Positions 6,999 to 59,930 of a DNA stretch of 64,000 bases are shown one piece after another. This DNA comes from Antedon mediterranea. Lineage: Eukaryota; Animalia; Echinodermata. The notes beneath the pieces are model-generated. The model had not been told where the DNA came from and searched no databases. It was given only the letters and a program-made list of their open reading frames with translations. The stretch's first letter is position 1. Each line of letters begins with the position of its first letter. The stretch spans positions 19,592,001-19,656,000 of the forward strand of contig NC_092674.1 in assembly GCF_964355755.1 (NCBI RefSeq), given 5' to 3'. Made by a program: the position numbers and the translations under genes.

Positions 6999-7000
6999 AA

Positions 7001-20226: not shown

Positions 20227-20239
20227 AAGGATTCTAAAA

Positions 20240-34651: not shown

Positions 34652-34774
34652 AAGTATGGTATTATCACAGATTTTCACCCACCAGATACATTCTCTCATA
34701 CAACAAACGCCCTCACAATCAGTGCAGGCTTAACAAGTCAGAGTAAATTCCAACTTTAATTCGCAACGGTTTTT

Positions 34775-35107
34775 TACTCGGGGTACCCGAGTCTAGTACT
34801 TACTCATTTTCTCCTTCTCCTCCATCTGGACACTATTGAGTAAAAAGTGCGATTTTTAAAGTACTACTCCTTCCTTATTAGTTGTAGTATTGAGCTGGGA
34901 TTTAGCATGAATATACTACAGGGACATGTCCTCAAATCTATAGAGCCGGATTTTTAGATTTCAATCCGGATGCAGCCATATGACGTCTCGAAAATGGTAC
35001 CATATAGCCGTATTTGGTAGGTTATTGATGTGTATGTGACGTCACATCCCGTCTTATGACGTCATTACAGCTTCTTTTGCTGCACCCCGAGTATCGCACA
35101 TTCGTGC
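34775..35107 (+). mobile_element. Helentron/DINE-type element, family C, short copy
   Basis: 5' palindrome actcggg-gta-cccgagt; subTIR tactcggggt / accccgagta; 3' hairpin gcac-attc-gtgc; T runs at both ends. Confidence 0.8.
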
Positions 35108-35374
35108 TTTTTACTCGGGGTACCCGAGTCTAGGACTTACTCATTTTCTCCTCCTCCATCTGGACACTATTGAGTAAAAAGTGCGATTTTTAAAGTACTA
35201 CTCCTCCATTATTAGTTGTAGTATTGAGCTGGGATTTGGCATGAATATACTACAGGGACATGTCCTCAAAGCTATAGAGCCGGATTTTTAATTTTTTGTT
35301 AATTAATTTGTTTAATTAAGAAGCCACAATGTGTGACACACACCACAGCGTTATGTAGTTATATGGTTATATGC

Positions 35375-35734: not shown

Positions 35735-35875
35735 ATTTTTCTTTAACTTTAACTGTATACGTCTATATACAGCTTCTTTCTCTGTACCCCGAGTATTGCA
35801 CATTCGTGCTTTTTAGGTTATATGCATGATATGCATATAACCTCTTGATTCTGTCAAAATCTTTATTTATTTATT

Positions 35876-35923
35876 AGGTTATATGCATGATATGCATATA
35901 ACCTCTTGATTCTGTCAGAATCT

Positions 35924-35962
<39 letters not shown>

Positions 35963-37313
35963 TTCTTTCCTTAGCACTATTTGTCCGTCAATTATCTTGA
36001 TATCAGTTTCATCTAACTAAGTCAATTTTTCAGAGTATATTCCTTATGGCCAGGAATCGATGTGGTTATGTTTTCACGGTGCGCAATCAAACATTACGCG
36101 GTCTACGCGCGATTTAACGAAATCACGTTTGTAATCATATCTTCACAAGCATGAATCACTTTTAAACAAAATTTGGTACTCATAAATTTCAGGTCATATT
36201 TCATCATATGGCAATACAATTACGTGCGTAGCGCATATAACGCATGCGTACGCGCGCTTAAAATGTTCAAAATTGTCAGAATATATTTTCGATGAAATTA
36301 GAGTACGTTTCAGGCAATTTTAAGCGTTTAAAAATTGCCATAAGTGCGCAGATTTTTGCACGCGCACTGCGCGTCAAACGTTATTGCGCACTGTTTTTGT
36401 CCGATTACTGTTGTATAACCTTTCTTTAACAATATCATCATATTGTATTAACTTTTCAAAGCCAAACAGCGTTATACGAGTACGTCAAAAGTGACAGGCT
36501 ACGCACGTGTAAGTTAACAAAATGGTGAAAATATGCTAAATTTTAAAATTAATATATATCGTTAGAATGCTCGGGAACACCGATTTTTTATTTCATTTTC
36601 TTGAAGTGTATGTATCATATGTATGATTTATTATCAAATAAAGAGAACAAAAGTTGATTAAGTCATCATTAATGGCATATTAAATTTACAAAAATTAATT
36701 TCGACAATCAAACAAATTATACAATTTTCTTAGGCCGAAATAACAAACTTAACATTAACTTTCTTCCTTAAGAAGTTCATATATTAAAGTTAAAAAGTAT
36801 ATAGTTTGACAGTGCATCATTTTTAAAAATCTTTAAAGATGTCATCTTAGTAAAACATTATAATTCATTACGGTATGTAATAATCTATCTGCACCAAAGT
36901 GGTTACTGCATAGTAAATACACGGAGGAATATTTCCATATTTTTTAGTCAGTTGTGTATGGCTCGGTGGTCTTTGCTCGTGTCTATAGCATTTAAGGTAC
37001 CGAGTTCGAGTCTCACCTTGGGAAACGAAACAAAATAAGATTTTTTTTTATTATCCGTATTGTTTGTTCAATTGTATTTCTTAGTGTATAGATTACACAA
37101 AATGTGGTTTATGACATTATATACGCAGAAGGATCTTTGATCGGATTATGATACCGGCTATTGTATTTGCGTTAGCAAGATCCTATCATATATTATAAAT
37201 AACTAAAGATTCTGAGAAAATCAATCAATCAAAATATCTTAAATCAATCAATTATCTTTATTTAAATCAATGCATATAACCTATAATTCGTCATAGTGAC
37301 GAATTAAATCTAG
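35876..37313 (+). mobile_element. Family A element, uninterrupted copy
   Basis: 5' palindrome aggttatatgcat-gat-atgcatataacct, (TTTA)n, body, 3' subTIR atgcatataacct, hairpin taattcgtca-tag-tgacgaatta, end CTAG; TT flanks. Confidence 0.9.
36952..37025 (+). promoter_or_regulatory. tRNA-like Pol III A/B-box module in family A (present in every complete A body)
   Basis: A box TGGCTCGGTGG (36959) and B-box/T-loop GAG-TTCGAGT-CTC (37002) at tRNA spacing; most other copies have GAGATCGAG. Confidence 0.55.
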
Positions 37314-37315
37314 TT

Positions 37316-37623
37316 AGGTTATATGCATGATATGCATATAACCTCTTGATTCTGTCAAAATCTTTATTTATTAGGTTATATGCATTATCATGCATATAAC
37401 CTCTTGATTCTGTCAAAATCTTTATTAGGTTATATGCATGATATGCATATAACCTCTTGATTCTGTCAAAATCTTTATTTATTTATTTATTAGGTTATAT
37501 GCATTATCATGCATATAACCTCTTGATTCTGTCAAAATCTTTATTTATTAGGTTATATGCATGATATGCATATAACCTCTTGATTCTGTCAAAATCTTTA
37601 TTTATTTATTTATTTATTTATTT
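37316..37623 (+). repeat. Stack of five family A 5' heads
   Basis: Five copies of aggttatatgcat(gat/tatc)atgcatataacctcttgattctgtcaaaatc separated by partial (TTTA)n; loop order GAT, TATC, GAT, TATC, GAT. Confidence 0.95.
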
Positions 37624-40454
37624 ATTCTTTCCTTAGCACTATTTTGTCCGTGCATTATCTTGGCATCAGTTTAATCTAGCTAAGTCAAGTTTTCAGAGTA
37701 TATTCCTCATGGCCAGGTATCGATGTGGTTATATTTTCACGATGCGTAATCAAAAATTACGCGGTCTACGCGCGATTTTACGAAATCACGTTTGTAATCA
37801 TATCTTCACAAGCATGAATCACAATTAAACAAAATTTGGTACTCATAAATTTCAGGTCATATTTCATCATATGGCAATACAATTACGTGCGTAGCGCATA
37901 TAACGCTTGCGTACGCGCGCTTAAAATGTTCAAAATTGTCAAAATTTATTTTCGATGAAATTAGAGTACGTTTCAGGCAATTTTAAGCGTTTAAAAAATT
38001 GCCATGAGTGCGCAGATTTTTGCACGCGCACTGCGCGTTATACGTTAATGCGCACTCTTTTTGTCCGATTTCGGTTTTACAACCTTTCTTTAATAATATC
38101 ATCATATTTTATTCACTTTTCAACGCGTAATTGCCTTATACGAGCACGTCAAAAGTGACAGGCTACGCACGTGTAAGTTAACAAAATGGTGAAAATATGC
38201 TAAATTTTAAAATTAATATAGATCGTCAGAATGCTCGGGAACACATATTTTTTATTTCATTTTCTTGAAGTGTATGTATCTTATGTATGATTTATTATTA
38301 AACTAAGGGAACAAAAGTTGATTAAGCCATAATTAATTGCATATTAAATTTAAAAAAAATCATTTCGACAATCAAACAAATTATGACATTTTCTTAGGCC
38401 AAAATAACAAACTTAACATTAACTTTCTTCCTCCAAAAGTTCATATATTAAAGTTAAAAGTATATAGTTTGACAGTGCATCATTTTTGTACATTTTTAGA
38501 GATGTCATCATAGTAAAAAATTATAATTCATTGCGGTATGTAATAATCTATCTGCACCAAAGTGGTTACTGCATAGTAAATACACGGAGGAATTTTTCTA
38601 CAATTTTTAGACAGTTGTGTATGGCTCGGTGGTGTGTGCTCGTGTCTATGGCACTCAAGGTACCGAGATCGAGTCTCACCTTGGGAAACGAAATAAGATT
38701 TTTTTTTTATTATCCGTATTGTTTGTTCAAATTTATTTCTTAGTGTATAGATTATACACATGATTTATAATGAAATCTAGATAAAAATTAACTTATGTCT
38801 TTATTATTATGTAACAACAAATGTGGTTTATGACATTATACGCATATGGATCTTTGATCGGATTGTGATACCGGCTATGGTGTTCGCGTTAGCAAGGTCC
38901 TATCATATATTATAAATAATTAAAGATTCTGAGAAAATCAATCAATCAATATATCTTTTAAAAATCAATTATCTTGATTTAAATCAATGCATATAACCTA
39001 TAATTCGTCATAGTGACGAATTAAATCTAGTTTATTTATTCTTTCCTTAGCACTATTTTGTCCGTGAATTATCTTGATATCAGTTTCATCTATCTAAGTC
39101 AATTTTTCAGAGTATATTCCTTATGGCCAGGAATCGATGTGGTTATATTTTCACGATGCGTAATCAAAAATTACGCGGTCTACGCGCGATTTTACGAAAT
39201 CACGTTTGTAATCATATCTTCACAAGCATGAATCACAATTAAACAAAATTTGGTACTCATAAATTTCAGGTCATATTTCATCATATGGCAATACAATTAC
39301 GTGCGTAGCGCATATAACGCTTGCGTACGCACGCTTAAAATGTTCAAAATTGTCAAAATTTATTTTCGATGAAATTAGAGTACGTTTCAGGCAATTTTAA
39401 GCGTTTAAAAAATTGCCATGAGTGCGCAGATTTTTGCACGCGCACTGCGCGTTATACGTTAATGCGCACTCTTTTTGTCCGATTTCGGTTGTACAACCTT
39501 TCTTTAATAATATCATCATATTTTATTCACTTTTCAACGCGTAATTGCCTTATACGAGCACGTCAAAAGTGACAGGCTACGCACGTGTAAGTTAACAAAA
39601 TGGTGAAAATATGCTAAATTTTAAAATTAATATAGATCGTCAGAATGCTCGGGAACACGTATTTTTTATTTAATTTTCTTGAAGTGTATGTATCTTATGT
39701 ATGATTTATTATTAAACTAAGGGAACAAAAGTTGATTAAGCCATAATTAATTGCATATTAAATTAAAAAAAATTCATTTCGACAATCAAACAAATTATGA
39801 CATTTTCTTAGGCAAAAATAACAAACTTAACATTAACTTTCTTCCTTCAAAAGTTCATATATTAAAGTTAAAAGTATATAGTTTGACAGTGCATCATTTT
39901 TGTACATTTTTAGAGATGTCATCATAGTAAAAAATTATAATTCATTGCGGTATGTAATAATCTATCTGCACCAAAGTGGTTACTGCATAGTAAATACACG
40001 GAGGAATTTTTCTACAAATTTTAGTCAGTTGTGTATGGCTCGGTGGTGTGTGCTCGTGTCTATGGCACTCAAGGTACCGAGATCGAGTCTCACCTTGGGA
40101 AATGAAATAATTTTTTTTTTTTATTATCCGTATTGTTTGTTCAAATTTATTTCTTAGTGTATATATTATACACATGATTTATAATGAAATCTAGATAAAA
40201 AATAACTTATGTCTTTATTATTATGTAACAGCAAATGTGGTTTATGACATTATACGCAGAGGGATCTTTGATCGGATTGTGATACCGGCTATTGTATTCG
40301 CGTTAGCAAGGTCCTATCATATATTATATATTATTTAAAGAATCTGACAAAATCAATGAATCAAAATATCTTTTAAAAATCAATTATCTTTATTTTAATT
40401 ATCAATGCATATAACCTATAATTCGTCATAGTGACGAATTAAATCTAGTTTATT

Positions 40455-41938
40455 AGGTTATATGCATGATATGCATATAACCTCTTGATTCTGTCAAAAT
40501 CTTTATTTATTTATTTATTTATTTATTTATTCTTTCCTTAGCACTATTTGTCCGTGAATTATCTTGGCATCAGTTTCATCTATCTAAGTCAATTTTTCAG
40601 AGTATATTCCTTATGGCCAGGAATCGATGTGGTTATGTTTTCACGATGCGCAATCAAAAATTACGCGGTCTACGCGCGATTTAACGAAATCACGTTTGTA
40701 ATCATATCTTCACAAACATGAATCACTTTTAAACAAAATTTGGTACTCATAAATTTCAGGTCATATTTCATCATATGGCAATACAATTACGTGCGTAGCG
40801 CATATAACGCATGCGTACGCGCGCTTAAAATGTTGAAAATTGTCAGAATTTATTTTCGATGAAATTAGAGTACGTTTCAGGCAATTTTAAGCGTTTAAAA
40901 AATTGCCATGAGTGCGCAGATTTTTGCACGCGCACTGCGCGTCAAACGTTAATGCGCACTCTTTTTGTCCGATTACTGTTGTGTAACCTTTCTTTAATAA
41001 TATCATCATATTTTATTCACTTTTCAACGCGAAACAGCGTTATACGAGCACGTCAAAAGTGACGGGCTACGCACGTGTAAGTTAACAAAATGGTGAAAAT
41101 ATGCTAAATTTTAAAATTAATATATATCGTTAGAATGCTCGGGAACACATATTTTTTATTTAATTTTCTTGAAGTGTATGTATCTTATGTATGATTTATT
41201 ATTAAACTAAGGGAACAAAAGTTGATTAAGCCATAATTAATTGCATATTAAATTAAAAAAAATTCATTTCGACAATCAAACAAATTATGACATTTTCTTA
41301 GGCCAAAATAACAAACTTAACATTAACTTTCTTCCTTCAAAAGTTCATATATTAAAGTTAAAAGTATATAGTTTGACAGTGCATCATTTTTGTACATTTT
41401 TAGAGATGTCATCATAGTAAAAAATTATAATTCATTGCGGTATGTAATAATCTATCTGCACCAAAGTGGTTACTGCATAGTAAATACACGGAGGAATTTT
41501 TCTACAATTTTTAGTCAGTTGTGTATGGCTCGGTGGTGTGTGCTCGTGTCTATGGCACTCAAGGTACCGAGATCGAGTCTCACCTTGGGAAACGAAATAA
41601 ATTTTTTTTTTTATTGTCCGTATTGTTTGTTCAAATTTATTTCTTAGTGTATATATTATACACATGATTTATAATGAAATCTAGATAAAAAATAACTTAT
41701 GTCTTTATTATTATGTAACAGCAAATGTGGTTTATGACATTATACGCAGAGGGATCTTTGATCGGATTGTGATACCGGCTATTGTATTCACGTTAGCAAG
41801 GTCCTATCATATATTATATATTATTTAAAGAATCTGAGAAAATCAATGAATCAAAATATCTTTTAAAAATAAATTATCTTTATTTTAATTATCAATGCAT
41901 ATAACCTATAATTCGTCATAGTGACGAATTAAATCTAG
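40455..41938 (+). mobile_element. Family A element, uninterrupted copy
   Basis: Head, (TTTA)n, body, then subTIR, hairpin and CTAG. Confidence 0.9.
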
Positions 41939-41942
41939 TTTA

Positions 41943-43561
41943 TTGGTTATCCGCCTCAAGCGGATAACCTTTGTTATTGTAGTGTTTCTTTTTTTTTTTT
42001 ATTATTCTTCTTTCTTTCCGCCACTTTTGTTCGCGACGTTTCTCTTCAACGTGTTAACATAACACGTTGTAACTTGGTCAACATTTAGACATTTAACTGA
42101 AGTTGTGCAGCCAAGCTTTTGGACGCTGTCAGATACGCGTAGCGTAAGTTACGCGCGATTTTCTGAAAATCTTAAATCGGTCATAACTTCAAAACCGATA
42201 AATATTTTTTAACGAAGTTTTCAGCCACGTTTTCTTCACATCAATGGCTAACTTTTTCGATCTCTACCAAATTTTTGGAGACTAGAAAATTTTCGCGTAA
42301 ATTGCGTTTGAAATTTAAAAATTCTCCAAATTTGTACACGCTGTTTCTCTGCAACGCGTTAACATAACATGTTGTAACTTGGTCAACATTTTGACATCTA
42401 ACTGAAATTGTGCAGCCAAGCTTTTGGACGCTGTCAGAGGCGCGTATCGTAAGTTACGCGCGATTTTCTGAAAATCTTAAATTGATCATAACTTTGAAAC
42501 AGATAAATATTTTTTAACGTAATTTTCAGCCACGTTTGCTTCACATCAATTGTTAACTTTTTTAACCCTAACGAATTTTGTAACATTCGAAAGTGCGCGC
42601 GTAAACGACGTTTGAAGTTTTAAAATGCTTGAAATTAATTTCTGATTAAATTAGAGCACGATTCAGGTCATTTTAAGCGTTTAAAAAATTGCCACTGGTG
42701 CGCACATTTTTACGCGCGCACGGCGCAGGGAACGCGTATGAGCATTTCTTTTACACGATTTATGTTTTTACATCTTTGGTTAACAATTTTACGTTATTTT
42801 ATTCACTATTCAACTTGAAATGGCATTCTACGAGCACGTTAAACATGACTGGTTGCGCAGAAAAACGTCAAAAAATTGTGAAAATGTTGCAAAATATGTC
42901 TACTTTTTAAAACGATACAGTTCATCAGAATGCAAGGTTACCCCTATTTTTTATTTTTATTTCTTGCAGTTTATGAATCATAGATCTGATTTATAATAAT
43001 TTTTAATGTTAAAACGTGTTTGCTGGCTACACTATTTGCATATTAAATATAATTTTGGAAATTGTTATCATCAAACAAACGATAACATTTTCAAAGAGCA
43101 AAACAATAGACATAACTGTTATATTTTTTCTTCACATGTTAATATATAAAACTTGAAAGTATGCTCTTTCATAATATGTCACTGTTTAAAATTTATGAAG
43201 ATTTCATCATAGTAAAAATTATGATTTAGTTCGATATGTAATAATCAACTTGCATCGAGGGAGTTCACGACATACCGAACGAACGAGTAATCTTTCTTCG
43301 GATTATCTTCGGCAGGTGCTCATATGACTCGATGTGTAGTGCAACCGACTTTGGTATCAGAGGTACCGGGATCGAGTCCCGTCACGGGAAAACAATTAAA
43401 TATAAGGATTTATTTGGTTGTTACACTGAAAAGGCAGTTTTAATTTCGAATAGGCTACTTTTTTGGAAAAGCCAAAAACTGAAAAGTACTTGAATGCTCA
43501 AGATATGTTTTGTTGCGGGCGGATAACCAAACTTGTCCTCAAGTGACGAGTTCAGATCTAG
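41943..43561 (+). mobile_element. Family B element, uninterrupted (most diverged B copy)
   Basis: 5' palindrome ggttatccgc-ctcaa-gcggataacc, poly-T, ~300-bp internal direct repeat, 3' subTIR gcggataaccaa, hairpin aacttgtc-ctcaagt-gacgagtt, end CTAG. Confidence 0.9.
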
Positions 43562-46442
43562 TTTATTTATTCTTTCCTTAGCACTATTTTGTCCGTGCAT
43601 TATCTTGGCATCAGTTTAATCTAGCTAAGTCAAGTTTTCAGAGTATATTCCTCATGGCCAGGAATCGATGTGGTTATATTTTCACGATGCGTAATCAAAA
43701 ATTACGCGGTCTACGCGCGATTTTACGAAATCACGTTTGTAATCATATCTTCACAAGCATGAATCACAATTAAACAAAATTTGGTACTCATAAATTTCAG
43801 GTCATATTTCATCATATGGCAATAAAATTACGTGCGTAGCGCATATAACGCTTGCGTACGCGCGCTTAAAATGTTCAAAATTGTCAAAATTTATTTTCGA
43901 TGAAATTAGAGTACGTTTCAGGCAATTTTAAGCGTTTAAAAAATTGCCATGAGTGCGCAGATTTTTGCACGCGCACTGCGCGTTAAACGTTAATGCGCAC
44001 TCTTTTTGCCCGATTTCTGTTTTACAATCTTTCTTTAATAATATCATCATATTTGATTCAGGTTTCAACTCGAAATTGCGTTATACGAGCACGTCAAAAG
44101 TGACTGGCTACGCACGTATAAGTTAACAAAATGGTGAAAATATGCTAAATTTTAAAATTAATATATATCATCAGAATGCAGGGGAACACCTATTTTTTAT
44201 TTCATTTTCTTGAAGTGTATGTATCATATGTATGATTTATTATCAAATAAAGAGAACAAAAGTTGATTAAGTCATCATTAATTGCATATTAAATTTTTAA
44301 AAAATAATTTCGACAACCAAACAAATTATGACATTTTCTTAGGCCAAAATAACAAACTTAACATTAACTTTCTTCCTTCAAAAATTTTATATATTAAAGT
44401 TAAAAGTATGTAGTTTGACAGTGCATCATTTGTATACATTTTAAAGATGTCATCATAGTAAAAAATTATAATTCATTTCGGTATGTAATAATCTATTTGC
44501 ATCAAAGTGGTTACTGCATAGTAATTACACGGAGGAATTTTTCTACAACTTTTAGTCAGTTGTGTACGGCTCGGTGGTCTGTGCTCGTGTCTATGGCATT
44601 CAAGGTACCGAGATCGAGTCTCACCTTGGGAAACGAAATAAGATTTTTTTTTTATTATCCGTATTGTTTGTTCAAATTTATTTCTTAGTGTATAGATTAT
44701 ACACATGATTTATAATGAAATCTAGATAAAAATTAACTTATGTCTATATTATTATGTAACAACAAATGTGGTTTATGACATTATACGCATATGGATCTTT
44801 GATCGGATTGTGATACCGGCTATGGTGTTCGCGTTAGCAAGGTCCTATCATATATTATAAATAATTAACGATTCTGAGAAAATCAATCAATCAATATATC
44901 TTTTAAAAATCAATTATCTTTATTTAAATCAATGCATATAACCTATAATTCGTCATAGTGACGAATTAAATCTAGTTTATTTATTCTTTCCTTAGCACTA
45001 TTTGTCCGTGAATTATCTTGGCATCAGTTTCATCTATCTAAGTCAATTTTTCAGAGTATATTCCTTATGGCCAGGAATCGATGTGGTTATGTTTTCACGA
45101 TGCGCAATCAAAAATTACGCGGTCTACGCGCGATTTAACGAAATCACGTTTGTAATCATATCTTCACAAACATGAATCACTTTTAAACAAAATTTGGTAC
45201 TCATAAATTTCAGGTCATATTTCATCATATGGCAATACAATTACGTGCGTAGCGCATATAACGCATGCGTACGCGCGCTTAAAATGTTGAAAATTGTCAG
45301 AATTTATTTTCGATGAAATTAGAGTACGTTTCAGGCAATTTTAAGCGTTTAAAAAATTGCCATGAGTGCGCAGATTTTTGCACGCGCACTGCGCGTCAAA
45401 CGTTAATGCGCACTCTTTTTGTCCGATTACTGTTGTGTAACCTTTCTTTAATAATATCATCATATTTTATTCACTTTTCAACGCGAAACAGCGTTATACG
45501 AGCACGTCAAAAGTGACGGGCTACGCACGTGTAAGTTAACAAAATGGTGAAAATATGCTAAATTTTAAAATTAATATATATCGTTAGAATGCTCGGGAAC
45601 ACATATTTTTTATTTAATTTTCTTGAAGTGTATGTATCTTATGTATGATTTATTATTAAACTAAGGGAACAAAAGTTGATTAAGCCATAATTAATTGCAT
45701 ATTAAATTAAAAAAAATTCATTTCCACAATCAAACAAATTATGACATTTTCTTAGGCCAAAATAACAAACTTAACATTAACTTTCTTCCTTCAAAAGTTC
45801 ATATATTAAAGTTAAAAGTATATAGTTTGACAGTGCATCATTTTTGTACATTTTTAGAGATGTCATCATAGTAAAAAATTATAATTCATTGCGGTATGTA
45901 ATAATCTATCTGCACCAAAGTGGTTACTGCATAGTAAATACACGGAGGAATTTTTCTACAATTTTTAGTCAGTTGTGTATGGCTCGGTGGTGTGTGCTCG
46001 TGTCTATGGCACTCAAGGTACCGAGATCGAGTCTCACCTTGGGAAACGAAATAAATTTTTTTTTTTATTGTCCGTATTGTTTGTTCAAATTTATTTCTTA
46101 GTGTATATATTATACACATGATTTATAATGAAATCTAGATAAAAAATAACTTATGTCTTTATTATTATGTAACAGCAAATGTGGTTTATGACATTATACG
46201 CAGAGGGATCTTTGATCGGATTGTGATACCGGCTATTGTATTCACGTTAGCAAGGTCCTATCATATATTATATATTATTTAAAGAATCTGAGAAAATCAA
46301 TGAATCAAAATATCTTTTAAAAATAAATTATCTTTATTTTAATTATCAATGCATATAACCTATAATTCGTCATAGTGACGAATTAAATCTAGTTAGGTTA
46401 TATGCATGATATGCATATAACCTCTTGATTCTGTCAGAATCT

Positions 46443-46481
<39 letters not shown>

Positions 46482-48101
46482 TTGGTTATCCGCCTCAAGC
46501 GGATAACCTTTGTTATTGTAGTGTTACTTTTTTTTTTTATTATTCTTCTTTCTTTCTCAGATTTTGTGTACGCGTTTTCTCTTGAACGTGTTAACATAAC
46601 ATTTTGTAACTTGGTCAACATATAGACAATTAACTGAAGATGTACTGCGAAGCTTTTTGACAATGTCAGATCCGCGTAGCGTAAGTTACGCGCGATTTTC
46701 TGAAAATCTTAAATCGGTCATAACTTCGAAACCGATAAATATTTTTTAACGAAATTTTCAGCCACGTTTTCTTCACATCAATGGCTAACTTTTTCGCTCT
46801 TCAGCAAATTTTTGAACACTAGAAAGTCTGCGCGTAAACTGCGTTTGAAATTTTAAAATGCTCCTAATTTGTGCACGCTGTTTCTCTGTAACGCGTTAAC
46901 ATAACATTTTGTAACTTGTTCAACATATAGACATTTTACTGAAGTTGTCCAGCCAAGCTTTTTGACGATGTCAGAGCCGCGTAGCGTAAGTTACGCGTGA
47001 TTTTCTGAAAATCTTAAATTGGTTATAACTTCGACACAAATGAATATTTTTTAACGTCATTTTCAGCCACGTTTGCTTCACATCAATAGTTAACTTTTTT
47101 TACGCTACCGCAACTTGTAACATTAGAAAGTGCGCGCGTAAATGGCGTTTGAAATTTTAAAATGCTTCAAATCAATTTCTGATTAAATTAGAGCATGATT
47201 CAGGTCATTTTAAGCGTTTAAAAAATTGCCACTGGTGCGCACATTTTTACGCGCGCACGGCGCAGGGAACACGTTTGAGCCTTTCTTTTACACGATTTGT
47301 GTTTTTAAATCTTCGGTTAACAATTTTACGTTATTTTATTCACTTTTCAACTTGAAATGGCGTTCTACGAGCACGTTAAACATGATAGGTTGCGCACGAA
47401 AACGTCAACAAATTGTGAAAATGTTGCAAAATATGTCTACTTTTAAAAATGAAACAGTTCATCAGAATGCAAGGTTACCCCCATTTTTTATTTTATTTTC
47501 TTGCAGTGTATTAATCATAGGTCTAATTTATTATAGTCTTGAATGTTAAAAAGTGTTTGATGGCTACATTATTTGCATATTAAATGTAATTTTTGAAATA
47601 ATTGTCATCAAACAAACATAAACATATTCAAAGAGCAAAACAATAAACATAACGTTTATCTTTTTTCTTTACATGTTAATATATAAAACTTGAATGTATG
47701 CACTTTCATAATATGTAACTGTTTAAAATTTGTGAAGATTTCATCATAGTAAAAATTATGATTTAAGTTCATTATGTAATAATCAACTTGCATCGAGGGG
47801 GGTTCACGACATACCGAATGCACGAGGACTCTTTCTTCGGATTTTCTTCAGCAGGTGCTCATATGGCTCGATGTGTAGTGCAACCGACTTTGGTATCAGA
47901 TGTACCGGGTTCGAGTCCCGTCACGGGAAAACAATTAATTAAAGGGGTTTAGTTGGTTATTACACTGAGAGGGCAGTTTTAATTTTGAATAGCCTACTTT
48001 TTTTGGAAAAGTCATAACTTGGAAGTACTTGAATACGCAAGATACGCTTTGTTGCTGGCGGATAACCAAACTCGTCCTCAAGTGACGAGTTTAAGTTCTA
48101 G
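46482..48101 (+). mobile_element. Family B element inserted in the (TTTA)n of an A copy
   Basis: Complete B head, body and CTAG end, with TTTA repeats on both sides. Confidence 0.92.
47855..47930 (+). promoter_or_regulatory. tRNA-like module in family B (present in all B bodies)
   Basis: A-box-like TGGCTCGATGT and B box GGTTCGAGTCC within the stem CGGG/CCCG. Confidence 0.55.
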
Positions 48102-51100
48102 TTTATTTATTCTTTCCTTAGCACTATTTGTCCGTCAATTATCTTGGCATCGGTTTTATCTATCTAAGTCAATTTTTCAGAGTATATTCCTTATGGCCAG
48201 GAATCGATGTGGTTATGTTTTCACGGTGCGCAATCAAAAATTACGTGGTCTACGCGCGATTTAACGAAATCACGTTTGTAATCATATCTTCACAAACATG
48301 AATCACTTTTAAACAAAATTTGGTACTCATAAATTTCAGGTCATATTTCATCATATGGCAATACAATTACGTGCGTAGCGCATATAACGCATGCGTACGC
48401 GCGCTTAAAATGTTGAAAATTGTCAGAATTTATTTTCGATGAAATTAGAGTACGTTTCAGGCAATTTTAAGCGTTTAAAAAATTGCCATGAGTGCGCAGA
48501 TTTTTGCACGCGCACTGCGCGTCAAACGTTAATGCGCACTGTTTGTGTCTGATTACTGTTGTATAACCTTTCTTTAATAATATCATCATATTTTATTCAC
48601 TTTTCAACGCGAAACAGCGTTATACGAGCACGTCAAAAGTGACGGGCTACGCACGTGTAAGTTAACAAAATGGTGAAAATATGCTAAATTTTAAAATTAA
48701 TATATATCGTTAGAATGCTCGGGAACACCTATTTTTTATTTAATTTTCTTGAAGTGTATGTATCATATGTATGATTTATTATGAAATTAGAAGAACAAAA
48801 GTTGATTAAGTCATCATTAATGGCATATTAAATTCAACAAAATTAATTTCGACAATCAAACAAATTATAACATTTTCTTAGGCCAAAATAACAAACTTAA
48901 CGTTAACTTTCTTCCTTAAGAAGTTCATATATTAAAGTTAAAAGTATATAGTTTGACAGTGCATCATTTTTTTAAATTTTTAAAGATGTCATCATAGTAA
49001 AACATTATAATTCATTGCGGTATGTAATAATCTATCTGCACCAAAGTGGTTACTGCATAGTAAATACACGGAGGAATTTTTCTCCAAGTTTTAGTCAGTT
49101 GTGTATGGCTCGATGGTCTGTGCTCGTGTCAATGGCATTCAAGGTACCGAGTTCGAGTCTCACCTTGGGAAACGAAATAAGATTTTTTTTTTATTATCCG
49201 TATTGTTCAAATTTATTTCTTAGTGTATAGATTATACACATGATTTATAATGAAATCTAGATAAAAAGTTACTTTATGTCTTTTTTATTATGTAACAACA
49301 AATGCGGTTTATGACATTATACGCAGAGGGATCTTTGATCGGATTGTGATACCGGCTATGGTGTTCGCGTTAGCAAGGTCCTATCATATATTATAAATAA
49401 TTAAAGATTCTGAGAAAATCAATCAATCAATATATCTTTTAAAAATCAATTATCTTTATTTAAATCAATGCATATAACCTATAATTCGTCATAGTGACGA
49501 ATTAAATCTAGTTTATTTATTTATTCTTTCCTTAGCACTATTTTGTCCGTGCATTATCTTGGCATCAGTTTAATCTAGCTAAGTCAAGTTTTCAGAGTAT
49601 ATTCCTCATGGCCAGGAATCGATGTGGTTATATTTTCACGATGCGTAATCAAAAATTACGCGGTCTACGCGCGATTTTACGAAATCACGTTTGTAATCAT
49701 ATCTTCACAAGCATGAATCACAATTAAACAAAATTTGGTACTCATAAATTTCAGGTCATATTTCATCATATGGCAATAAAATTACGTGCGTAGCGCATAT
49801 AACGCTTGCGTACGCGCGCTTAAAATGTTCAAAATTGTCAAAATTTATTTTCGATGAAATTAGAGTACGTTTCAGGCAATTTTAAGCGTTTAAAAAAATG
49901 CCATGAGTGCGCAGATTTTTGCACGCGCACTGCGCGTTAAACGTTAATGCGCACTCTTTTTGCCCGATTTCTGTTTTACAATCTTTCTTTAATAATATCA
50001 TCATATTTGATTCAGGTTTCAACTCGAAATTGCGTTATACGAGCACGTCAAAAGTGACTGGCTACGCACGTATAAGTTAACAAAATGGTGAAAATATGCT
50101 AAATTTTAAAATTAATATATATCGTCAGAATGCAGGGGAACACCTATTTTTTATTTCATTTTCTTGAAGTGTATGTATCATATGTATGATTTATTATCAA
50201 ATAAAGAGAACAAAAGTTGATTAAGTCATCATTAATTGCATATTAAATTAAAAAAAAATAATTTCGACAATCAAACAAATTATGACATTTTCTTAGGCCA
50301 AAATAACAAACTTAACATTAACTTTCTTCCTTCAAAAATTCATATATTAAAGTTAAAAGTATGTAGTTTGACAGTGCATCATTTGTATACATTTTAAAGA
50401 TGTCATCATAGTAAAAAATTATAATTCATTTCGGTATGTAATAATCTATTTGCATCAAAGTGGTTACTGCATAGTAAATACACGAAGGAATTTTTCTACA
50501 ACCTTTAGTCAGTTGTGTACGGCTCGGTGGTCTGTGCTCGTGTCTATGGCATTCAAGGTACCGAGATCGAGTCTCACCTTGGGAAACGAAATAAGATTTT
50601 TTTTTATTATCCGTATTGTTTGTTCAAATTTATTTCTTAGTGTATAGATTATACACATGATTTATAATGAAATCTAGATAAAAATTAACTTATGTCTTTA
50701 TTATTATGTAACAACAAATGTGGTTTATGACATTATACGCATATGGATCTTTGATCGGATTGTGATACCGGCTATGGTGTTCGCGTTAGCAAGGTCCTAT
50801 CATATATTATAAATAATTAAAGATTCTGAGAAAATCAATCAATCAATATATCTTTTAAAAATCAATTATCTTTATTTAAATCAATGCATATAACCTATAA
50901 TTCGTCATAGTGACGAATTAAATCTAGTTTATTTATTTATTCTTTCCTTAGCACTATTTTGTCCGTGAATTATCTTGATATCAGTTTCATCTATCTAAGT
51001 CAATTTTTCAGAGTATATTCCTTATGGCCAGGAATCGATGTGGTTATATTTTCACGATGCGTAATCAAAAATTACGCGGTCTACGCGCGATTTTACGAAA

Positions 51101-52350
51101 TCACGTTTGTAATCATATCTTCACAAGCATGAATCACAATTAAACAAAATTTGGTACTCATAAATTTCAGGTCATATTTCATCATATGGCAATACAATTA
51201 CGTGCGTAGCGCATATAACGCTTGCGTACGCGCGCTTAAAATGTTCAAAATTGTCAAAATTTATTTTCGATGAAATTAGAGTACGTTTCAGGCAATTTTA
51301 AGCGTTTAAAAAATTGCCATGAGTGCGCAGATTTTTGCACGCGCACTGCGCGTTATACGTTAATGCGCACTCTTTTTGTCCGATTTCGGTTGTACAACCT
51401 TTCTTTAATAATATCATCATATTTTATTCACTTTTCAACGCGTAATTGCCTTATACGAGCACGTCAAAAGTGACAGGCTACGCACGTGTAAGTTAACAAA
51501 ATGGTGAAAATATGCTAAATTTTAAAATTAATATAGATCGTCAGAATGCTCGGGAACACATATTTTTTATTTCATTTTCTTGAAGTGTATGTATCTTATG
51601 TATGATTTATTATTAAACTAAGGGAACAAAAGTTGATTAAGCCATAATTAATTGCATATTAAATTTAAAAAAATTCATTTCGACAATCAAACAAATTATG
51701 ACATTTTCTTAGGCCAAAATAACAAACTTAACATTAACTTTCTTCCTCCAAAAGTTCATATATTAAAGTTAAAAGTATATAGTTTGACAGTGCATCATTT
51801 TTGTACATTTTTAGAGATGTCATCATAGTAAAAAATTATAATTCATTGCGGTATGTAATAATCTATCTGCACCAAAGTGGTTACTGCATAGTAAATACAC
51901 GGAGGAATTTTTCTACAATTTTTAGACAGTTGTGTATGGCTCGGTGGTGTGTGCTCGTGTCTATGGCACTCAAGGTACCGAGATCGAGTCTCACCTTGGG
52001 AAACGAAATAAGATTTTTTTTTTATTATCCGTATTGTTTGTTCAAATTTATTTCTTAGTGTATATATTATACACATGATTTATAATGAAATCTAGATAAA
52101 AAATAACTTATGTCTTTATTATTATGTAACAGCAAATGTGGTTTATGACATTATACGCAGAGGGATCTTTGATCGGATTGTGATACCGGCTATTGTATTC
52201 GCGTTAGCAAGGTCCTATCATTATTATAAATAATTAAAGAATCTGAGAAAATCAATGAATCAAAATATCTTTTAAAAATCAATTATCTTTATTAAAATCA
52301 ATGCATATAACCTATAATTCGTCATAGTGACGAATTAAATCTAGTTTATT

Positions 52351-52575
52351 AGGTTATATGCATTATCATGCATATAACCTCTTGATTCTGTCAAAATCTT
52401 TATTAGGTTATATGCATTATCATGCATATAACCTCTTGATTCTGTCAAAATCTTTATTAGGTTATATGCATTATCATGCATATAACCTCTTGATTCTGTC
52501 AAAATCTTTATTAGGTTATATGCATTATCATGCATATAACCTCTTGATTCTGTCAAAATCTTTATTTATTTATTT
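52351..52575 (+). repeat. Stack of four identical family A heads (TATC loop, 54-bp period)
   Basis: Heads at 52351, 52405, 52459 and 52513, followed by four consecutive bodies of the matching gtgaattatcttgatatc subfamily. Confidence 0.95.
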
Positions 52576-55500
52576 ATTCTTTCCTTAGCACTATTTTGTC
52601 CGTGAATTATCTTGATATCAGTTTCATCTATTTAAGTCAATTTTTCAGAGTATATTCCTTATGGCCAGGAATCGATGTGGTTATATTTTCACGATGCGTA
52701 ATCAAAAATTACGCGGTCTACGCGCGATTTTACGAAATCACGTTTGTAATCATATCTTCACAAGCATGAATCACAATTAAACAAAATTTGGTACTCATAA
52801 ATTTCAGGTCATATTTCATCATATGGCAATACAATTACGTGCGTAGCGCATATAACGCTTGCGTACGCGCGCTTAAAATGTTCAAAATTGTCAAAATTTA
52901 TTTTCGATGAAATTAGAGTACGTTTCAGGCAATTTTAAGCGTTTAAAAAATTGCCATGAGTGCGCAGATTTTTGCACGCGCACTGCGCGTTATACGTTAA
53001 TGCGCACTCTTTTTGTCCGATTTCGGTTGTACAACCTTTCTTTAATAATATCATCATATTTTATTCACTTTTCAACGCGTAATTGCCTTATACGAGCACG
53101 TCAAAAGTGACAGGCTACGCACGTGTAAGTTAACAAAATGGTGAAAATATGCTAAATTTTAAAATTAATATAGATCGTCAGAATGCTCGGGAACACATAT
53201 TTTTTATTTCATTTTCTTGAAGTGTATGTATCTTATGTATGATTTATTATTAAACTAAGGGAACAAAAGTTGATTAAGCCATAATTAATTGCATATTAAA
53301 TTAAAAAAAATTCATTTCGACAATCAAACAAATTATGACATTTTCTTAGGCCAAAATAACAAACTTAACATTAACTTTCTTCCTCCAAAAGTTCATATAT
53401 TAAAGTTAAAAGTATATAGTTTGACAGTGCATCATTTTTGTACATTTTTAGAGATGTCATCATAGTAAAAAATTATAATTCATTGCGGTATGTAATAATC
53501 TATCTGCACCAAAGTGGTTACTGCATAGTAAATACACGGAGGAATTTTTCTACAATTTTTAGACAGTTGTGTATGGCTCGGTGGTGTGTGCTCGTGTCTA
53601 TGGCACTCAAGGTACCGAGATCGAGTCTCACCTTGGGAAACGAAATAAGATTTTTTTTTTATTATCCGTATTGTTTGTTCAAATTTATTTCTTAGTGTAT
53701 ATATTATACACATGATTTATAATGAAATCTAGATAAAAAATAACTTATGTCTTTATTATTATGTAACAGCAAATGTGGTTTATGACATTATACGCAGAGG
53801 GATCTTTGATCGGATTGTGATACCGGCTATTGTATTCGCGTTAGCAAGGTCCTATCATATATTATAAATAATTAAAGAATCTGAGAAAATCAATGAATCA
53901 AAATATCTTTTAAAAATCAATTATCTTTATTAAAATCAATGCATATAACCTATAATTCGTCATAGTGACGAATTAAATCTAGTTTATTTATTCTTTCCTT
54001 AGCACTATTTTGTCCGTGAATTATCTTGATATCAGTTTCATCTATCTAAGTCAATTTTTCAGAGTATATTCCTTATGGCCAGGAATCGATGTGGTTATAT
54101 TTTCACGATGCGTAATCAAAAATTACGAGGTCTACGCGCGATTTTACGAAATCATGTTTGTAATCATATCTTCACAAGCATGAATCACAATTAAACAAAA
54201 TTTGGTACTCATAAATTTCAGGTCATATTTCATCATATGGCAATACAATTACGTGCGTAGCGCATATAACGCTTGCGTACGCGCGCTTAAAATGTTCAAA
54301 ATTGTCAAAATTTATTTTCGATGAAATTAGAGTACGTTTCAGGCAATTTTAAGCGTTTAAAAAATTGCCATGAGTGCGCAGATTTTTGCACGCGCACTGC
54401 GCGTTATACGTTAATGCGCACTCTTTTTGTCCGATTTCGGTTGTACAACCTTTCTTTAATAATATCATCATATTTTATTCACTTTTCAACGCGTAATTGC
54501 CTTATACGAGCACGTCAAAAGTGACAGGCTACGCACGTGTAAGTTAACAAAATGGTGAAAATATGCTAAATTTTAAAATTAATATAGATCGTCAGAATGC
54601 TCGGGAACACATATTTTTTATTTAATTTTCTTGAAGTGTATGTATCTTATGTATGATTTATTATTAAACTAAGGGAACAAAAGTTGATTAAGCCATAATT
54701 AATTGCATATTAAATAAAAAAAAATTCATTTCGACAATCAAACAAATTATGACATTTTCTTAGGCCAAAATAACAAACTTAACATTAACTTTCTTCCTTC
54801 AAAAGTTCATATATTAAAGTTAAAAGTATATAGTTTGACAGTGCATCATTTTTGTACATTTTTAGAGATGTCATCATAGTAAAAAATTATAATTCATTGC
54901 GGTATGTAATAATCTATCTGCACCAAAGTGGTTACTGCATAGTAAATACACGGAGGAATTTTTCTACAATTTTTAGTCAGTTGTGTATGGCTCGGTGGTG
55001 TGTGCTCGTGTCTATGGCACTCAAGGTACCGAGATCGAGTCTCACCTTGGGAAACGAAATACATTTTTTTTTTATTATCCGTATTGTTTGTTCAAATTTA
55101 TTTCTTAGTGTATATATTATACACATGATTTATAATGAAATCTAGATAAAAAATAACTTATGTCTTTATTATTATGTAACAGCAAATGTGGTTTATGACA
55201 TTATACGCAGAGGGATCTTTGATCGGATTGTGATACCGGCTATTGTATTCGCGTTAGCAAGGTCCTATCATATATTATATATTATTTAAAGAATCTGAGA
55301 AAATCAATGAATCAAAATATCTTTTAAAAATAAATTATCTTTATTTTAATTATCAATGCATATAACCTATAATTCGTCATAGTGACGAATTAAATCTAGT
55401 TTATTTATTCTTTCCTTAGCACTATTTTGTCCGTGAATTATCTTGATATCAGTTTCATCTATCTAAGTCAATTTTTCAGAGTATATTCCTTATGGCCAGA

Positions 55501-58500
55501 AATCGATGTGGTTATATTTTCACGATGCGTAATCAAAAATTACGCGGTCTACGCGCGATTTTACGAAATCACGTTTGTAATCATATCTTCACAAGCATGA
55601 ATCACAGTTAAACAAAATTTGGTACTCATAAATTTCAGGTCATATTTCATCATATGGCAATACAATTACGTGCGTAGCGCATATAACGCTTGCGTACGCG
55701 CGCTTAAAATGTTCAAAATTGTCAAAATTTATTTTCGATGAAATTAGAGTACGTTTCAGGCAATTTTAAGCGTTTAAAAAATTGCCATGAGTGCGCAGAT
55801 TTTTGCACGCGCACTGCGCGTTATACGTTAATGCGCACTCTTTTTGTCCGATTTCGGTTGTACAACCTTTCTTTAATAATATCATCATATTTTATTCACT
55901 TTTCAACGCGTAATTGCCTTATACGAGCACGTCAAAAGTGACAGGCTACGCACGTGTAAGTTAACAAAATGGTGAAAATATGCTAAATTTTAAAATTAAT
56001 ATAGATCGTCAGAATGCTCGGGAACACATATTTTTTATTTAATTTTCTTGAAGTGTATGTATCTTATGTATGATTTATTATTAAACTAAGGGAACAAAAG
56101 TTGATTAAGCCATAATTAATTGCATATTAAATTAAAAAAAATTCATTTCGACAATCAAACAAATTATGACATTTTCTTAGGCCAAAATAACAAACTTAAC
56201 ATTAACTTTCTTCCTTCAAAAGTTCATATATTAAAGTTAAAAGTATATAGTTTGACAGTGCATCATTTTTGTACATTTTTAGAGATGTCATCATAGTAAA
56301 AAATTATAATTCATTGCGGTATGTAATAATCTATCTGCACCAAAGTGGTTACTGCATAGTATTTACACGGAGGAATTTTTCTACGATTTTTAGTCAGTTG
56401 TGTATGGCTCGGTGGTGTGTGCTCGTGTCTATGGCACTCAAGGTACCGAGATCGAGTCTCACCTTGGGAAACGAAATAAACTTTTTTTTTTATTATCCGT
56501 ATTGTTTGTTCAAATTTATTTCTTAGTGTATATATTATACACATGATTTATAATGAAATCTAGATAAAAAATAACTTATGTCTTTATTATTATGTAACAG
56601 CAAATGTGGTTTATGACATTATACGCAGAGGGATCTTTGATCGGATTGTGATACCGGCTATTGTATTCGCGTTAGCAAGGTCCTATCATATATTATATAT
56701 TATTTAAAGAATCTGAGAAAATCAATGAATCAAAATATCTTTTAAAAATAAATTATCTTTATTTTAATTATCAATGCATATAACCTATAATTCGTCATAG
56801 TGACGAATTAAATCTAGTTTATTTATTCTTTCCTTAGCACTATTTTGTCCGTGAATTATCTTGATATCAGTTTCATCTATCTAAGTCAATTTTTCAGAGT
56901 ATATTCCTTATGGCCAGGAATCGATGTGGTTATATTTTCACGATGCGTAATCAAAAATTACGCGGTCTACGCGCGATTTTACGAAATCACGTTTGTAATC
57001 ATATCTTCACAAGCATGAATCACAATTAAACAAAATTTGGTACTCATAAATTTCAGGTCATATTTCATCATATGGCAATACAATTACGTGCGTAGCGCAT
57101 ATAACGCTTGCGTACGCGCGCTTAAAATGTTCAAAATTGTCAAAATTTATTTTCGATGAAATTAGAGTACGTTTCAGGCAATTTTAAGCGTTTAAAAAAT
57201 TGCCATGAGTGCGCAGATTTTTGCACGCGCACTGCGCGTTATACGTTAATGCGCACTCTTTTTGTCCGATTTCGGTTGTACAACCTTTCTTTAATAATAT
57301 CATCATATTTTATTCACTTTTCAACGTGTAATTGCCTTATACGAGCACGTCAAAAGTGACAGGCTACGCACGTGTAAGTTAACAAAATGGTGAAAATATG
57401 CTAAATTTTAAAATTAATATAGATCGTCAGAATGCTCGGGAACACATATTTTTTATTTCATTTTCTTGAAGTGTATGTATCTTATGTATGATTTATTATT
57501 AAACTAAGGGAACAAAAGTTGATTAAGCCATAATTAATTGCATATTAAATTTAAAAAAATTCATTTCGACAATCAAACAAATTATGACATTTTCTTAGGC
57601 CAAAATAACAAACTTAACATTAACTTTCTTCCTCCAAAAGTTCATATATTAAAGTTAAAAGTATATAGTTTGACAGTGCATCATTTTTGTACATTTTTAG
57701 AGATGTCATCATAGTAAAAAATTATAATTCATTGCGGTATGTAATAATCTATCTGCACCAAAGTGGTTACTGCATAGTAAATACACGGAGGAATTTTTCT
57801 ACAATTTTTAGACAGTTGTGTATGGCTCGGTGGTGTGTGCTCGTGTCTATGGCACTCAAGGTACCGAGATCGAGTCTCACCTTGGGAAACGAAATAAGAT
57901 TTTTTTTTTATTATCCGTATTGTTTGTTCAAATTTATTTCTTAGTGTATATATTATACACATGATTTATAATGAAATCTAGATAAAAAATAACTTATGTC
58001 TTTATTATTATGTAACAGCAAATGTGGTTTATGACATTATACGCAGAGGGATCTTTGATCGGATTGTGATACCGGCTATTGTATTCGCGTTAGCAAGGTC
58101 CTATCATATATTATAAATAATTAAAGAATCTGAGAAAATCAATGAATCAAAATATCTTTTAAAAATAAATTATCTTTATTTTAATTATCAATGCATATAA
58201 CCTATAATTCGTCATAGTGACGAATTAAATCTAGTTTATTTATTCTTTCCTTAGCACTATTTTGTCCGTGCATTATCTTGGCATCAGTTTCATCTAGCTA
58301 AGTCAAGTTTTCAGAGTATATTCCTTATGGCCAGGAATCGATGTGGTTATATTTTCACGATGCGTAATCAAAAATTACGCGGTCTACGCGCGATTTTACG
58401 AAATCACGTTTGTAATCATATCTTCACAAGCATGAATCACAATTAAACAAAATTTGGTACTCATAAATTTCAGGTCATATTTCATCATATGGCAATTAAA

Positions 58501-59653
58501 TTACGTGCGTAGCGCATATAACGCTTGCGTACGCGCGCTTAAAATGTTCAAAATTGTCAAAATTTATTTTCGATGAAATTAGAGTACGTTTCAGGCAATT
58601 TTAAGCGTTTAAAAAATTGCCATGAGTGCGCAGATTTTTGCACGCGCACTGCGCGTTAAACGTTAATGCGCACTCTTTTTGCCCGATTTCTGTTTTACAA
58701 TCTTTCTTTAATAATATCATCATATTTGATTCAGGTTTCAACTCGAAATTGCGTTATACGAGCACGTCAAAAGTGACTGGCTACGCACGTATAAGTTAAC
58801 AAAATGGTGAAAATATGCTAAATTTTTAAATTAATATATATCGTCAGAATGCAGGGGAACACCTATTTTTTATTTCATTTTCTTGAAGTGTATGTATCAT
58901 ATGTATGATTTATTATCAAATTAAGAGAACAAAAGTTGATTAAGTCATCATTAATTGCATATTAAATTAAAAAAACATAATTTCGACAATCAAACAAATT
59001 ATGACATTTTCTTAGGCCAAAATAACAAACTTAACATTAACTTTCTTCCTTCAAAAATTCATATATTAAAGTTAAAAGTATGTAGTTTGACAGTGCATCA
59101 TTTGTATACATTTTAAAGATGTCATCATAGTAAAAAATTATAATTCATTTCGGTATGTAATAATCTATTTGCATCAAAGTGGTTACTGCATAGTAAATAC
59201 ACGGAGGAATTTTTCTACAACTTTTAGTCAGTTGTGTACGGCTCGGTGGTCTGTGCTCGTGTCTATGGCATTCAAGGTACCGAGATCGAGTCTCACCTTG
59301 GGAAACGAAATAAGATTTTTTTTTTATTATCCGTATTGTTTGTTCAAATTTATTTCTTAGTGTATATATTATACACATGATTTATAATGAAATCTAGATA
59401 AAAATTAACTTATGTCTTTATTATTATGTAACAACAAATGTGGTTTATGACATTATACGCATATGGATCTTTGATCGGATTGTGATACCGGCTATGGTGT
59501 TCGCGTTAGCAAGGTCCTATCATATATTATAAATAATTAAAGATTCTGAGAAAATCAATCAATCAATATATCTTTTAAAAATCAATTATCTTTATTTAAA
59601 TCAATGCATATAACCTATAATTCGTCATAGTGACGAATTAAATCTAGTTTATT

Positions 59654-59930
59654 AGGTTATATGCATTATCATGCATATAACCTCTTGATTCTGTCAAAAT
59701 CTTTATTTATTGGTTATCCGCCTCAAGCGGATAACCTTTGTTATTGTAGTGTTACTTTTTTTTTAGGTTATATGCATTATCATGCATATAACCTCTTGAT
59801 TCTGTCAAAATCTTTATTTATTTATTGGTTATCCGCCTCAAGCGGATAACCTTTGTTATTGTAGTGTTACTTTTTGGTTATCCGCCTCAAGCGGATAACC
59901 TTTGTTATTGTAGTGTTACTTTTTTTTTTT
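59654..59930 (+). repeat. Mixed head stack A-B-A-B-B
   Basis: A 59654, B 59710, A 59765, B 59825, B 59874; followed by bodies B (59931), B (61501) and A (63070). Confidence 0.95.

Follow-up and report, generated by a model that had tools for sequence, protein, structure and literature searches.

The stretch of DNA analysed, called the window here, comprises 64,000 nucleotides of the Antedon mediterranea contig NC_092674.1. Its right-hand part, 35815..64000, is occupied by an array of two non-coding repeat families, A and B, which are present as heads (the 5' hairpin ends) and bodies. The array holds 15 A heads, 15 A bodies, 5 B heads and 4 B bodies, the last A body being clipped by the window end (64000), and every head (20/20) is in the + orientation. 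The positions of 12 heads and 12 bodies given in an earlier sequence-only reading (24/24) agree to the base with our token parse. The features, with A bodies named by 5' class (G, T, C or D), are:

35084..35130 (+): paralogous empty site; left flank as 35786-35814, T run continues, element absent
35815..64000 (+): putative nested array of two non-coding families, probably Helentron-type (HLE2/HINE), about 28 kb, right edge open
35815..35861 (+): A head lying outermost (GAT loop, A variant), set within a T run that belongs to a different repeat; own body outside the window
35876..37313 (+): intact A copy; G-variant head 35876-35922, (TTTA)n linker of 39 nt, class-G body 35962-37313
37316..37596 (+): five stacked A heads; GAT 37316, TATC 37373, GAT 37427, TATC 37492, GAT 37550
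37624..39030 (+): mosaic A body, class-C ends and class-T middle, adjoining head 37550
39038..40448 (+): A body, class T; partner, TATC head 37492
40455..41938 (+): intact A copy; GAT head, linker of 27 nt, class-D body at 40529
41945..43561 (+): intact, divergent B copy, 159-165 substitutions from the other B bodies
43569..44975 (+): class-C A body; assigned to GAT head 37427 by the strict stack, with 44983 and 49523 as equally good fits
44983..46392 (+): class-D A body, differing from 40529 by 1 substitution; may be surplus (headless)
46395..49511 (+): nested pair of G-variant A head 46395, whose linker contains the intact B copy 46484-48101, and class-G A body 48109-49511
49523..50927 (+): class-C A body; may be surplus, or goes with 37316 if parsed strictly
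50939..52344 (+): A body, class T; TATC head 37373 is its likely but unproven partner
52351..58234 (+): TATC heads 52351, 52405, 52459 and 52513, then class-T bodies 52576, 53990, 55407 and 56825, which differ by 6-16 substitutions
52513..52542 (+): example of a 5' hairpin; 13-bp subterminal repeat and inverted copy, 4-nt loop, z -7.4
53939..53982 (+): example of a 3' end; 13-bp 3' subterminal inverted repeat with its start 44 nt short of the end, then a 10-bp stem-loop and CTAG
58242..59647 (+): class-C A body; head 37316, 21 kb away, is a possible but not evidenced partner
59654..64000 (+): stacked heads A,B,A,B,B (59654-59876), then bodies B 59934, B 61504 and A 63070; beyond the range of the sequence-only reading

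Judged by their ends, both families are likely to be non-autonomous rolling-circle transposons of the DINE-1/HINE (HLE2, Helentron-type) kind, known here from non-coding copies. Such elements are described as having subterminal inverted repeats (subTIRs) of 11-15 bp, the 3' one lying some 38-60 bp short of the end, and a 5' hairpin that the 5' subTIR forms with an inverted repeat at a distance of 3-22 bp (PMC4067079). The subTIRs are 13 bp long in A and 11 bp in B, and the 3' copies of both start 44 nt before the CTAG end; the 5' hairpin (z -6.0 to -7.4) has a 13-bp stem and 3-4-nt loop in A and a 10-bp stem and 5-nt loop in B. A further stem-loop comes after the 3' subTIR, its stem measuring 10 bp in A (z -4.0) and 9 bp in B (z -2.2), and a microsatellite follows the 5' hairpin, (TTTA)n in A and poly-T in B. 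TT stands before each of the 20 heads and after each of the 18 complete bodies, consistent with insertion between T and T with variable terminal T's; the empty paralogue supports insertion without target duplication for the left flank alone, the right flank being outside the window. That the body of the outermost head also lies outside the window follows from the body ends within it, which are always followed by linker and never by the flank of the empty site. Family B carries one internal duplication of about 305 bp.

No open reading frame of at least 150 aa occurs in 35815-64000, where just two stop-to-stop frames of 103-111 aa are found. The window has 39 frames of at least 100 aa, and the 10 longer ones that were scanned gave no match to a RepHel domain. 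An autonomous partner would be expected to encode RepHel between the same termini and, for Helentrons in the strict sense as opposed to Helitron2, an endonuclease domain fused to it. The tRNA-like stretch in the bodies gave no tRNA match at E up to 1 (58242-61500), and neither ARAGORN nor Rfam at gathering scores reported a tRNA in the array. Canonical Helitrons (HLE1) were rejected as a classification, since the array elements start T-AGG or T-TGG, sit between T and T and possess subTIRs, whereas HLE1 elements start 5'-TC, target A and T and lack terminal inverted repeats. The 3' hairpin plus CTAG is the extent of the resemblance to HLE1.

We suggest, with a probability of about 0.8, that the block is a pile of such non-autonomous Helentron-type transposons, built by repeated insertion into the T-rich linker behind earlier 5' hairpins. 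Each new copy would enter the linker behind the hairpin of an earlier copy and push the host body downstream, leaving heads and bodies in bracket order; insertion would occur between T and T, adding two T's per event, with a RepHel transposase from another locus mobilising the copies in trans. What is observed in support of this model is the anatomy of the termini, the single orientation, the placing of all inner heads in linkers and an agreement between head type and 5' body SNPs beyond chance. The cleanest single nested pair is 46395..49511. Removal of the guests leaves 11/11 linkers in register with two T's added per insertion, which is no test of pairing because any pairing would be in register. 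Private substitutions, examined for an age gradient from host to guest, are uninformative, being dominated by how often each class is sampled.

The sequence-only reading had held that head variants predict the body subfamily across kilobases. In the donor copy head and 5' body variants are separated by about 100 bases, which would explain why they move as a unit. The G variant occurs only in heads 35876 and 46395, and the motifs gtccgtcaatt and cacggtgcgc both occur only in bodies 35962 and 48109 (2/15), which form a clade with 100/100 support in the whole-body tree. The range covered has 6 TATC heads and 6 gtgaattatcttgatatc bodies. GAT heads had been paired with ttggcatc bodies, but body 35962, the exception to the loop/motif rule, adjoins a GAT-loop head yet reads ttgatatc. 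Body 63070, of class T, fits TATC head 59765, a pair that the sequence-only reading had not listed.

When the head-to-body rule was learnt from the 4 intact (head-adjacent) copies and then applied to non-adjacent pairs, it was followed by 7/7 of those that close before the first mismatch or lie in locally balanced brackets (permutation P 0.0016), by 5/5 with the four-TATC block counted once (P 0.0064) and by 4/4 with that block dropped (P 0.014); these and the other linkage P values are optimistic because the classes were drawn by eye on the same copies. As the 7/7 set omits 3 pairs, two other figures are fairer: under a strict bracket parse the rule fits 8/10 non-adjacent pairs, 59765-63070 among them, missing 37373-44983 and 35815-50939 and leaving body 58242 headless, and a perfect fit with any two bodies skippable arose in 190/20000 shuffles (about 1%, P about 0.01). 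Family order agrees in 18/18 pairs of the strict parse, mostly trivially, A with A. The agreement of heads with 5' SNPs thus exceeds chance and is real evidence for nesting at 1.5-6 kb; the linkage being real, nesting is the likely origin of the array.

The word subfamily is valid only for about the first 125 bases of a body, because the bodies are mosaics, which may reflect later recombination or gene conversion. Within that stretch the head does predict the body, and over the whole length it does not: body 37624 follows a GAT head, yet its nearest relatives over the full length are TATC-type bodies (21-23 substitutions, against 45-49 to its own 5' class). The nearest neighbour agrees with head type in 7/10 cases for columns 1-125, 5/10 for 126-600, 3/10 for 601-1130 and 7/10 for 1131-1420.

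The claim that linkage supports nesting independently of the counts survives at 1.5-6 kb and fails for the two longest pairings, 37373-50939 (13.5 kb) and 37316-58242 (about 21 kb), which hang on count-driven skips and carry no weight as evidence. Four random bodies would permit such a long-pair fit 62% of the time, and 6/81 two-skip parses are equally perfect. Head 37316 is partnered by 49523 in the strict parse, and fully concordant parses also leave it open or give it 49523 or 44983. The counts themselves are unbalanced, with at least two surplus bodies, and together with the two mismatches and one headless body of the strict parse this runs counter to nesting. The surplus bodies could stem from 3' read-through, by which a single head is copied along with several bodies, or from the loss of a hairpin head by slippage between its flanking TTTATT repeats; 3' bypass is reported in about 11.7% of events for Helraiser, an HLE1 element (PMC4778049). 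A single tandem duplication of the D-C body pair as source of both was ruled out (1 vs 12 substitutions, P 0.003). The types in stack 37316-37550 form a palindrome, so this stack cannot separate last-in-first-out from first-in-first-out, and its GAT/TATC alternation could partly be slippage of a two-head unit.

Contigs of two public runs, X8 and X10, bear on copies elsewhere; the two are not independent, because they represent one sample, which may be the source of the window. Contigs leave the element directly after CTAG and T's into unrelated AT-rich DNA (18+15 in X8, 11+16+5 in X10), which shows that there are dispersed copies and that the 3' end is correctly placed. A junction of a B end with an A body appears in one contig of each run, and one X8 contig has a body-to-body junction at high depth, contig depths not being taken as copy numbers. 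All four body 5' variants are present among X8 contigs, unlinked to heads. A scan of metagenome contigs with a 24-base head pattern gave 0 matches.

Heads and bodies might instead have multiplied separately from a few intact copies, by head slippage between TTTATT repeats and unequal crossing-over of bodies, and their matching would then reflect local relatedness, not bracket order. The four identical heads spaced 54 nt apart, the near-identical bodies 40529/44983 (1 substitution) and 50939/52576 (2), the exchange between copies visible in mosaic bodies, and the high-depth body-to-body junction, of a kind that may be common, all fit this explanation, and some tandem duplication may have occurred, given the likeness of the adjacent bodies 50939/52576 and of 53990/55407, which are mutually nearest. 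However, consecutive bodies are no closer than chance (mean 48.5 substitutions vs 52.6 in shuffles, P 0.23); G head 46395 reaches, across a whole B element, the only other class-G body, 68 substitutions from 35962; the rule holds with the TATC block removed; the D-C duplication is rejected; and the stack A,B,A,B,B is mirrored by bodies B,B,A, an order with a chance of 0.2 on its own. We therefore regard separate multiplication as improbable.

Slightly less probable again is a small number of arrivals as rolling-circle concatemers or composites, with several 5' ends per body or one head with several bodies, in place of about 19 separate insertions. Composite copies in which several 5' termini share one 3' end have been described (PMC5148889), as have, second-hand in a review, plant arrays with many 5' ends (PMC12628747), and the surplus bodies would be explained; but one circle gives identical units, and here there are two families, four 5' classes and up to 100 differences in about 1400 bases, while composite copies presuppose earlier nesting. 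An assembly artefact of a high-copy repeat, affecting the array or its surplus bodies, is very improbable: body 44983 is just one base off 40529, but most copies have private substitutions and distinct neighbours, and both junction types recur in the run contigs. Nested insertion remains our preferred reading.

The nesting architecture itself is of a known kind, and the point of interest is the strict linker targeting. All inner heads (19/19) lie behind another head in a short T-rich linker and 0 inside a body, although linkers provide 14/212 TT sites of a copy (about 7%). The T9-12-ATT tract present in 14/14 complete A bodies has received no insertion, whereas the near-identical B linker was hit in 2/5. 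Tentatively, and against our own expectation, the elements might home on themselves, the transposase picking T's beside a terminus of its own kind and not any T-rich DNA. Each insertion would then bring a new target, and the locus would therefore grow into a satellite-like array readable as brackets. In the literature consulted, HLE2 target choice is described just as 'between T and T'; if a neighbouring terminus is needed, these transposases would follow a rule of self-homing.

The array involves neither a gene nor a host function. Its interest lies in the readable insertion history of a transposon-built tandem array, which bears on how mobile elements seed satellite DNA, and in the comparison of head variant with 5' body variant as a practical test of nested insertion against tandem duplication. 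A literature search by title and start of abstract, with most subscription journals outside its scope, listed no paper on a deep two-family HINE nest with head-body linkage.

The elements resemble DINE-1/HINE (PMC4067079; oyster Cg_HINE, PMC7492417), as described there, in their 13-bp subTIRs, 5' inverted-repeat hairpin, 4-nt microsatellite behind the hairpin, 3' stem-loop, T-flanked insertion and lack of coding capacity. They differ in that family A is without central tandem repeats, the array ends read CTAG before the T's, and self-nesting is deep, a feature absent from the descriptions consulted. Plant tandem arrays of truncated Helitrons (Xiong et al. 2016, as reviewed in PMC12628747) are likewise satellite-like and composed of Helitron parts with many 5' ends, but they have just one 3' end and are attributed to the amplification of circles, whereas the bodies here are complete, heterogeneous and interleaved by family. 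Also similar are the FoHeli self-insertions of Fusarium (PMC5148889), where self-insertion of fungal HLE2 elements is reported to yield multiple 5' ends, and HelenXT233 with two left ends (PMC11417382): in both an HLE2 element is inserted near the 5' end of a relative, and repeated short 5' ends mark different subfamilies. In those cases, as described, a single 3' end carries repeated short 5' ends, with one three-copy case, whereas the Antedon array retains two families in place, with at least 20 heads and 19 bodies, so that the bracket order can be read.

From 35815 to the end of the window the sequence is made up solely of two related repeats, A and B, non-coding families of the DINE-1/HINE type (HLE2, Helentron-type) that are ~70% alike over ~800 bp. 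In each, a short 5' hairpin end (the head) is followed by a T-rich linker and the rest of the element (the body), both named here by start coordinate; a token parse counts 15 A heads, 15 A bodies, 5 B heads and 4 B bodies, every one on the + strand. The A head is a perfect 13-bp hairpin whose loop reads GAT or TATC, followed by 18 bases and then (TTTA)n, and the A body (1352-1411 bp; the last, 63070, is incomplete, cut at 64000) has a copy of the 13-bp hairpin arm 44 nt before its end, a 10-bp stem-loop and CTAG. B, with bodies of 1558-1560 bp, is built to the same plan, its terminal repeats being different and its linker poly-T. These features are shared with those listed for DINE-1/HINE non-autonomous Helentrons in the accessible parts of PMC4067079 and PMC7492417, and for HLE2 generally in those of PMC11417382. 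Each B body also holds a ~305-bp internal direct duplication of 84-86% identity (42026-42636, 46563-47172, 59948-60564, 61525-62134) that A lacks. Some 250-400 bases upstream of their 3' end, A and B bodies contain a stretch resembling by eye the A and B boxes of tRNA (for example 53574-53650 and 61255-61320, and at the same place in other bodies), for which Rfam and ARAGORN gave no tRNA match.

The window is non-bacterial, rich in repeats and 34% GC, and left of the array lie LINE-type and LTR retrotransposon fragments with endonuclease, reverse transcriptase (RT) and integrase domains, among other elements:

5310-11314, + strand: decayed LINE (PHD, endonuclease, RT)
12408-16500, - strand: decayed LTR retrotransposon (RT, integrase zinc finger)
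18839-21617, 23495-25420, 25470-27338, 27664-28640: several elements, some inserted in one another, that have long terminal inverted repeats and tandem repeats inside
30766-31794, - strand: second LINE RT fragment, decayed

Just left of the array, at 31864-35735, three pairs of tRNA-like sequences (called Asp-ATC, Thr-TGT and Val-AAC) stand in tandem or nested repeats and are likely tRNA-derived repeats. The host of the array is a repeat as well, with at least three copies nearby (34771, 35084, 35786; in 34771-35300 and 35770-35814), an inverted repeat around the target T run, and a short hairpin with CTAG behind it; it is possibly another rolling-circle element. At 35084-35130 a paralogue of the array's left flank reads on across this T run with no element in it.

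The sequence-only reading had proposed that head variants predict body subfamily across kilobases and so support nesting; its 24 coordinates are all exact in the token parse. We set four classes of A body by their first 60 bases:

Class G: 35962, 48109
Class D: 40529, 44983
Class C: 37624, 43569, 49523, 58242
Class T: 39038, 50939, 52576, 53990, 55407, 56825, 63070

Four copies still have head and body side by side, and they give the rule that a G head goes with G, a GAT loop with C or D, and a TATC loop with T. In a strict parse, where heads open brackets and bodies close them with zero skips, the rule holds for 8 of 10 non-adjacent pairs and fails for 37373-44983 and 35815-50939, and body 58242 ends up headless. 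The seven pairs whose brackets close ahead of the first mismatch or within balanced sub-brackets, a set omitting three non-adjacent pairs, all fit the rule (P 0.0016; 0.0064 counting the four-TATC block once, 0.014 omitting it), and with any two skips allowed a perfect fit arises in 190 of 20000 label shuffles, all these values being optimistic because the classes were defined on these same copies. Body 35962 reads ttgatatc after a GAT loop, contrary to the proposed pairing of GAT-loop heads with ttggcatc bodies. One fitting pair, 59765-63070, lies beyond the range of that reading and is absent from its list.

Beyond the 5' end, "body subfamily" is an overstatement, as the A bodies are mosaic. 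In 37624 a class-T middle lies between ends of class C, and 40529 resembles G over its first ~600 columns and T beyond. Nearest neighbours agree with head type in 7/10 cases at the 5' end, 3/10 in columns 601-1130 and 7/10 at the 3' end. A whole-body tree of the 14 complete A bodies (63070 excluded as partial) gives good support only to the G pair and the three full C bodies, and bodies paired with TATC heads do not form a clade.

Head 35815 must stay open, because its flank follows no body in the window, which leaves 12 heads for 14 bodies and hence at least two bodies surplus. Of 81 valid two-skip parses, six fit perfectly, and the pairs 37373-50939 and 37316-58242 recur in the three of these that keep the adjacent pairs. 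Such a long-pair fit would be permitted by four random bodies in 62% of cases. Once three bodies count as surplus, there are parses that agree just as well with 37316 left open or paired with 49523 or 44983; the two longest pairings, offered earlier as support, are therefore a reading rather than evidence. We consider that 37373 probably pairs with 50939, and that 37316 may, more doubtfully, pair with 58242.

We suggest that a RepHel transposase acting in trans would copy head, linker and body together, as a unit that would insert between T's of a resident copy's linker, adding two T's; repetition would stack heads and displace host bodies downstream, and later exchange between copies would wear down linkage along the body. 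Among the simplest origins of the surplus bodies would be 3' read-through carrying extra bodies behind one head, and bypass at the 3' end is described for the HLE1 element Helraiser in the portion of PMC4778049 available. Alternatively, slippage between TTTATT repeats may have removed a hairpin head, a loss that would produce precisely the 7-nt junction observed. A single duplication of a D-C body pair was rejected as their origin.

Nesting as such is consistent with the last head stack, A,B,A,B,B, followed by bodies B,B,A in mirror order (chance 0.2 alone). Consecutive bodies are no more similar than in shuffled order (P 0.23), and the nearest relative is adjacent for 4 of 14. Each of the 19 inner heads stands in a linker, although these insertions are not necessarily independent events, and a 27-nt linker contains 14 of the 212 TT sites of one copy. 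A T9-12-ATT tract present in all 14 complete A bodies has received no insertion; the like tract of B linkers is hit in 2/5 (Fisher P about 0.06 by our own arithmetic, for this comparison alone). Self-homing, in which the transposase would pick T's beside an existing terminus of its own kind, is a possibility.

The family is abundant in contigs of public sequencing runs (10508 contigs of X8 aligned to one copy; X8 and X10 are one sample, which may be the source of the window itself), and in these contigs dispersed copies give way to AT-rich DNA immediately behind CTAG plus a few T's. Runs X1, X2 and X4, under other organism labels, contain a related element (compared over 52508-53984 and 53870-54110) that is divergent upstream of roughly body base 32; relatives thus combine a similar body with different 5' parts.

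The head-body matching is real but modest support for an event of a known kind. As far as the consulted portions of these sources go, self-insertion of Fusarium HLE2 elements yields multiple 5' termini (PMC5148889), two left ends mark two subfamilies of a Xenopus HLE2 (PMC11417382), and nested insertion is touched on only in general terms in PMC13085455 and a preprint (10.64898/2026.09.17.752431).
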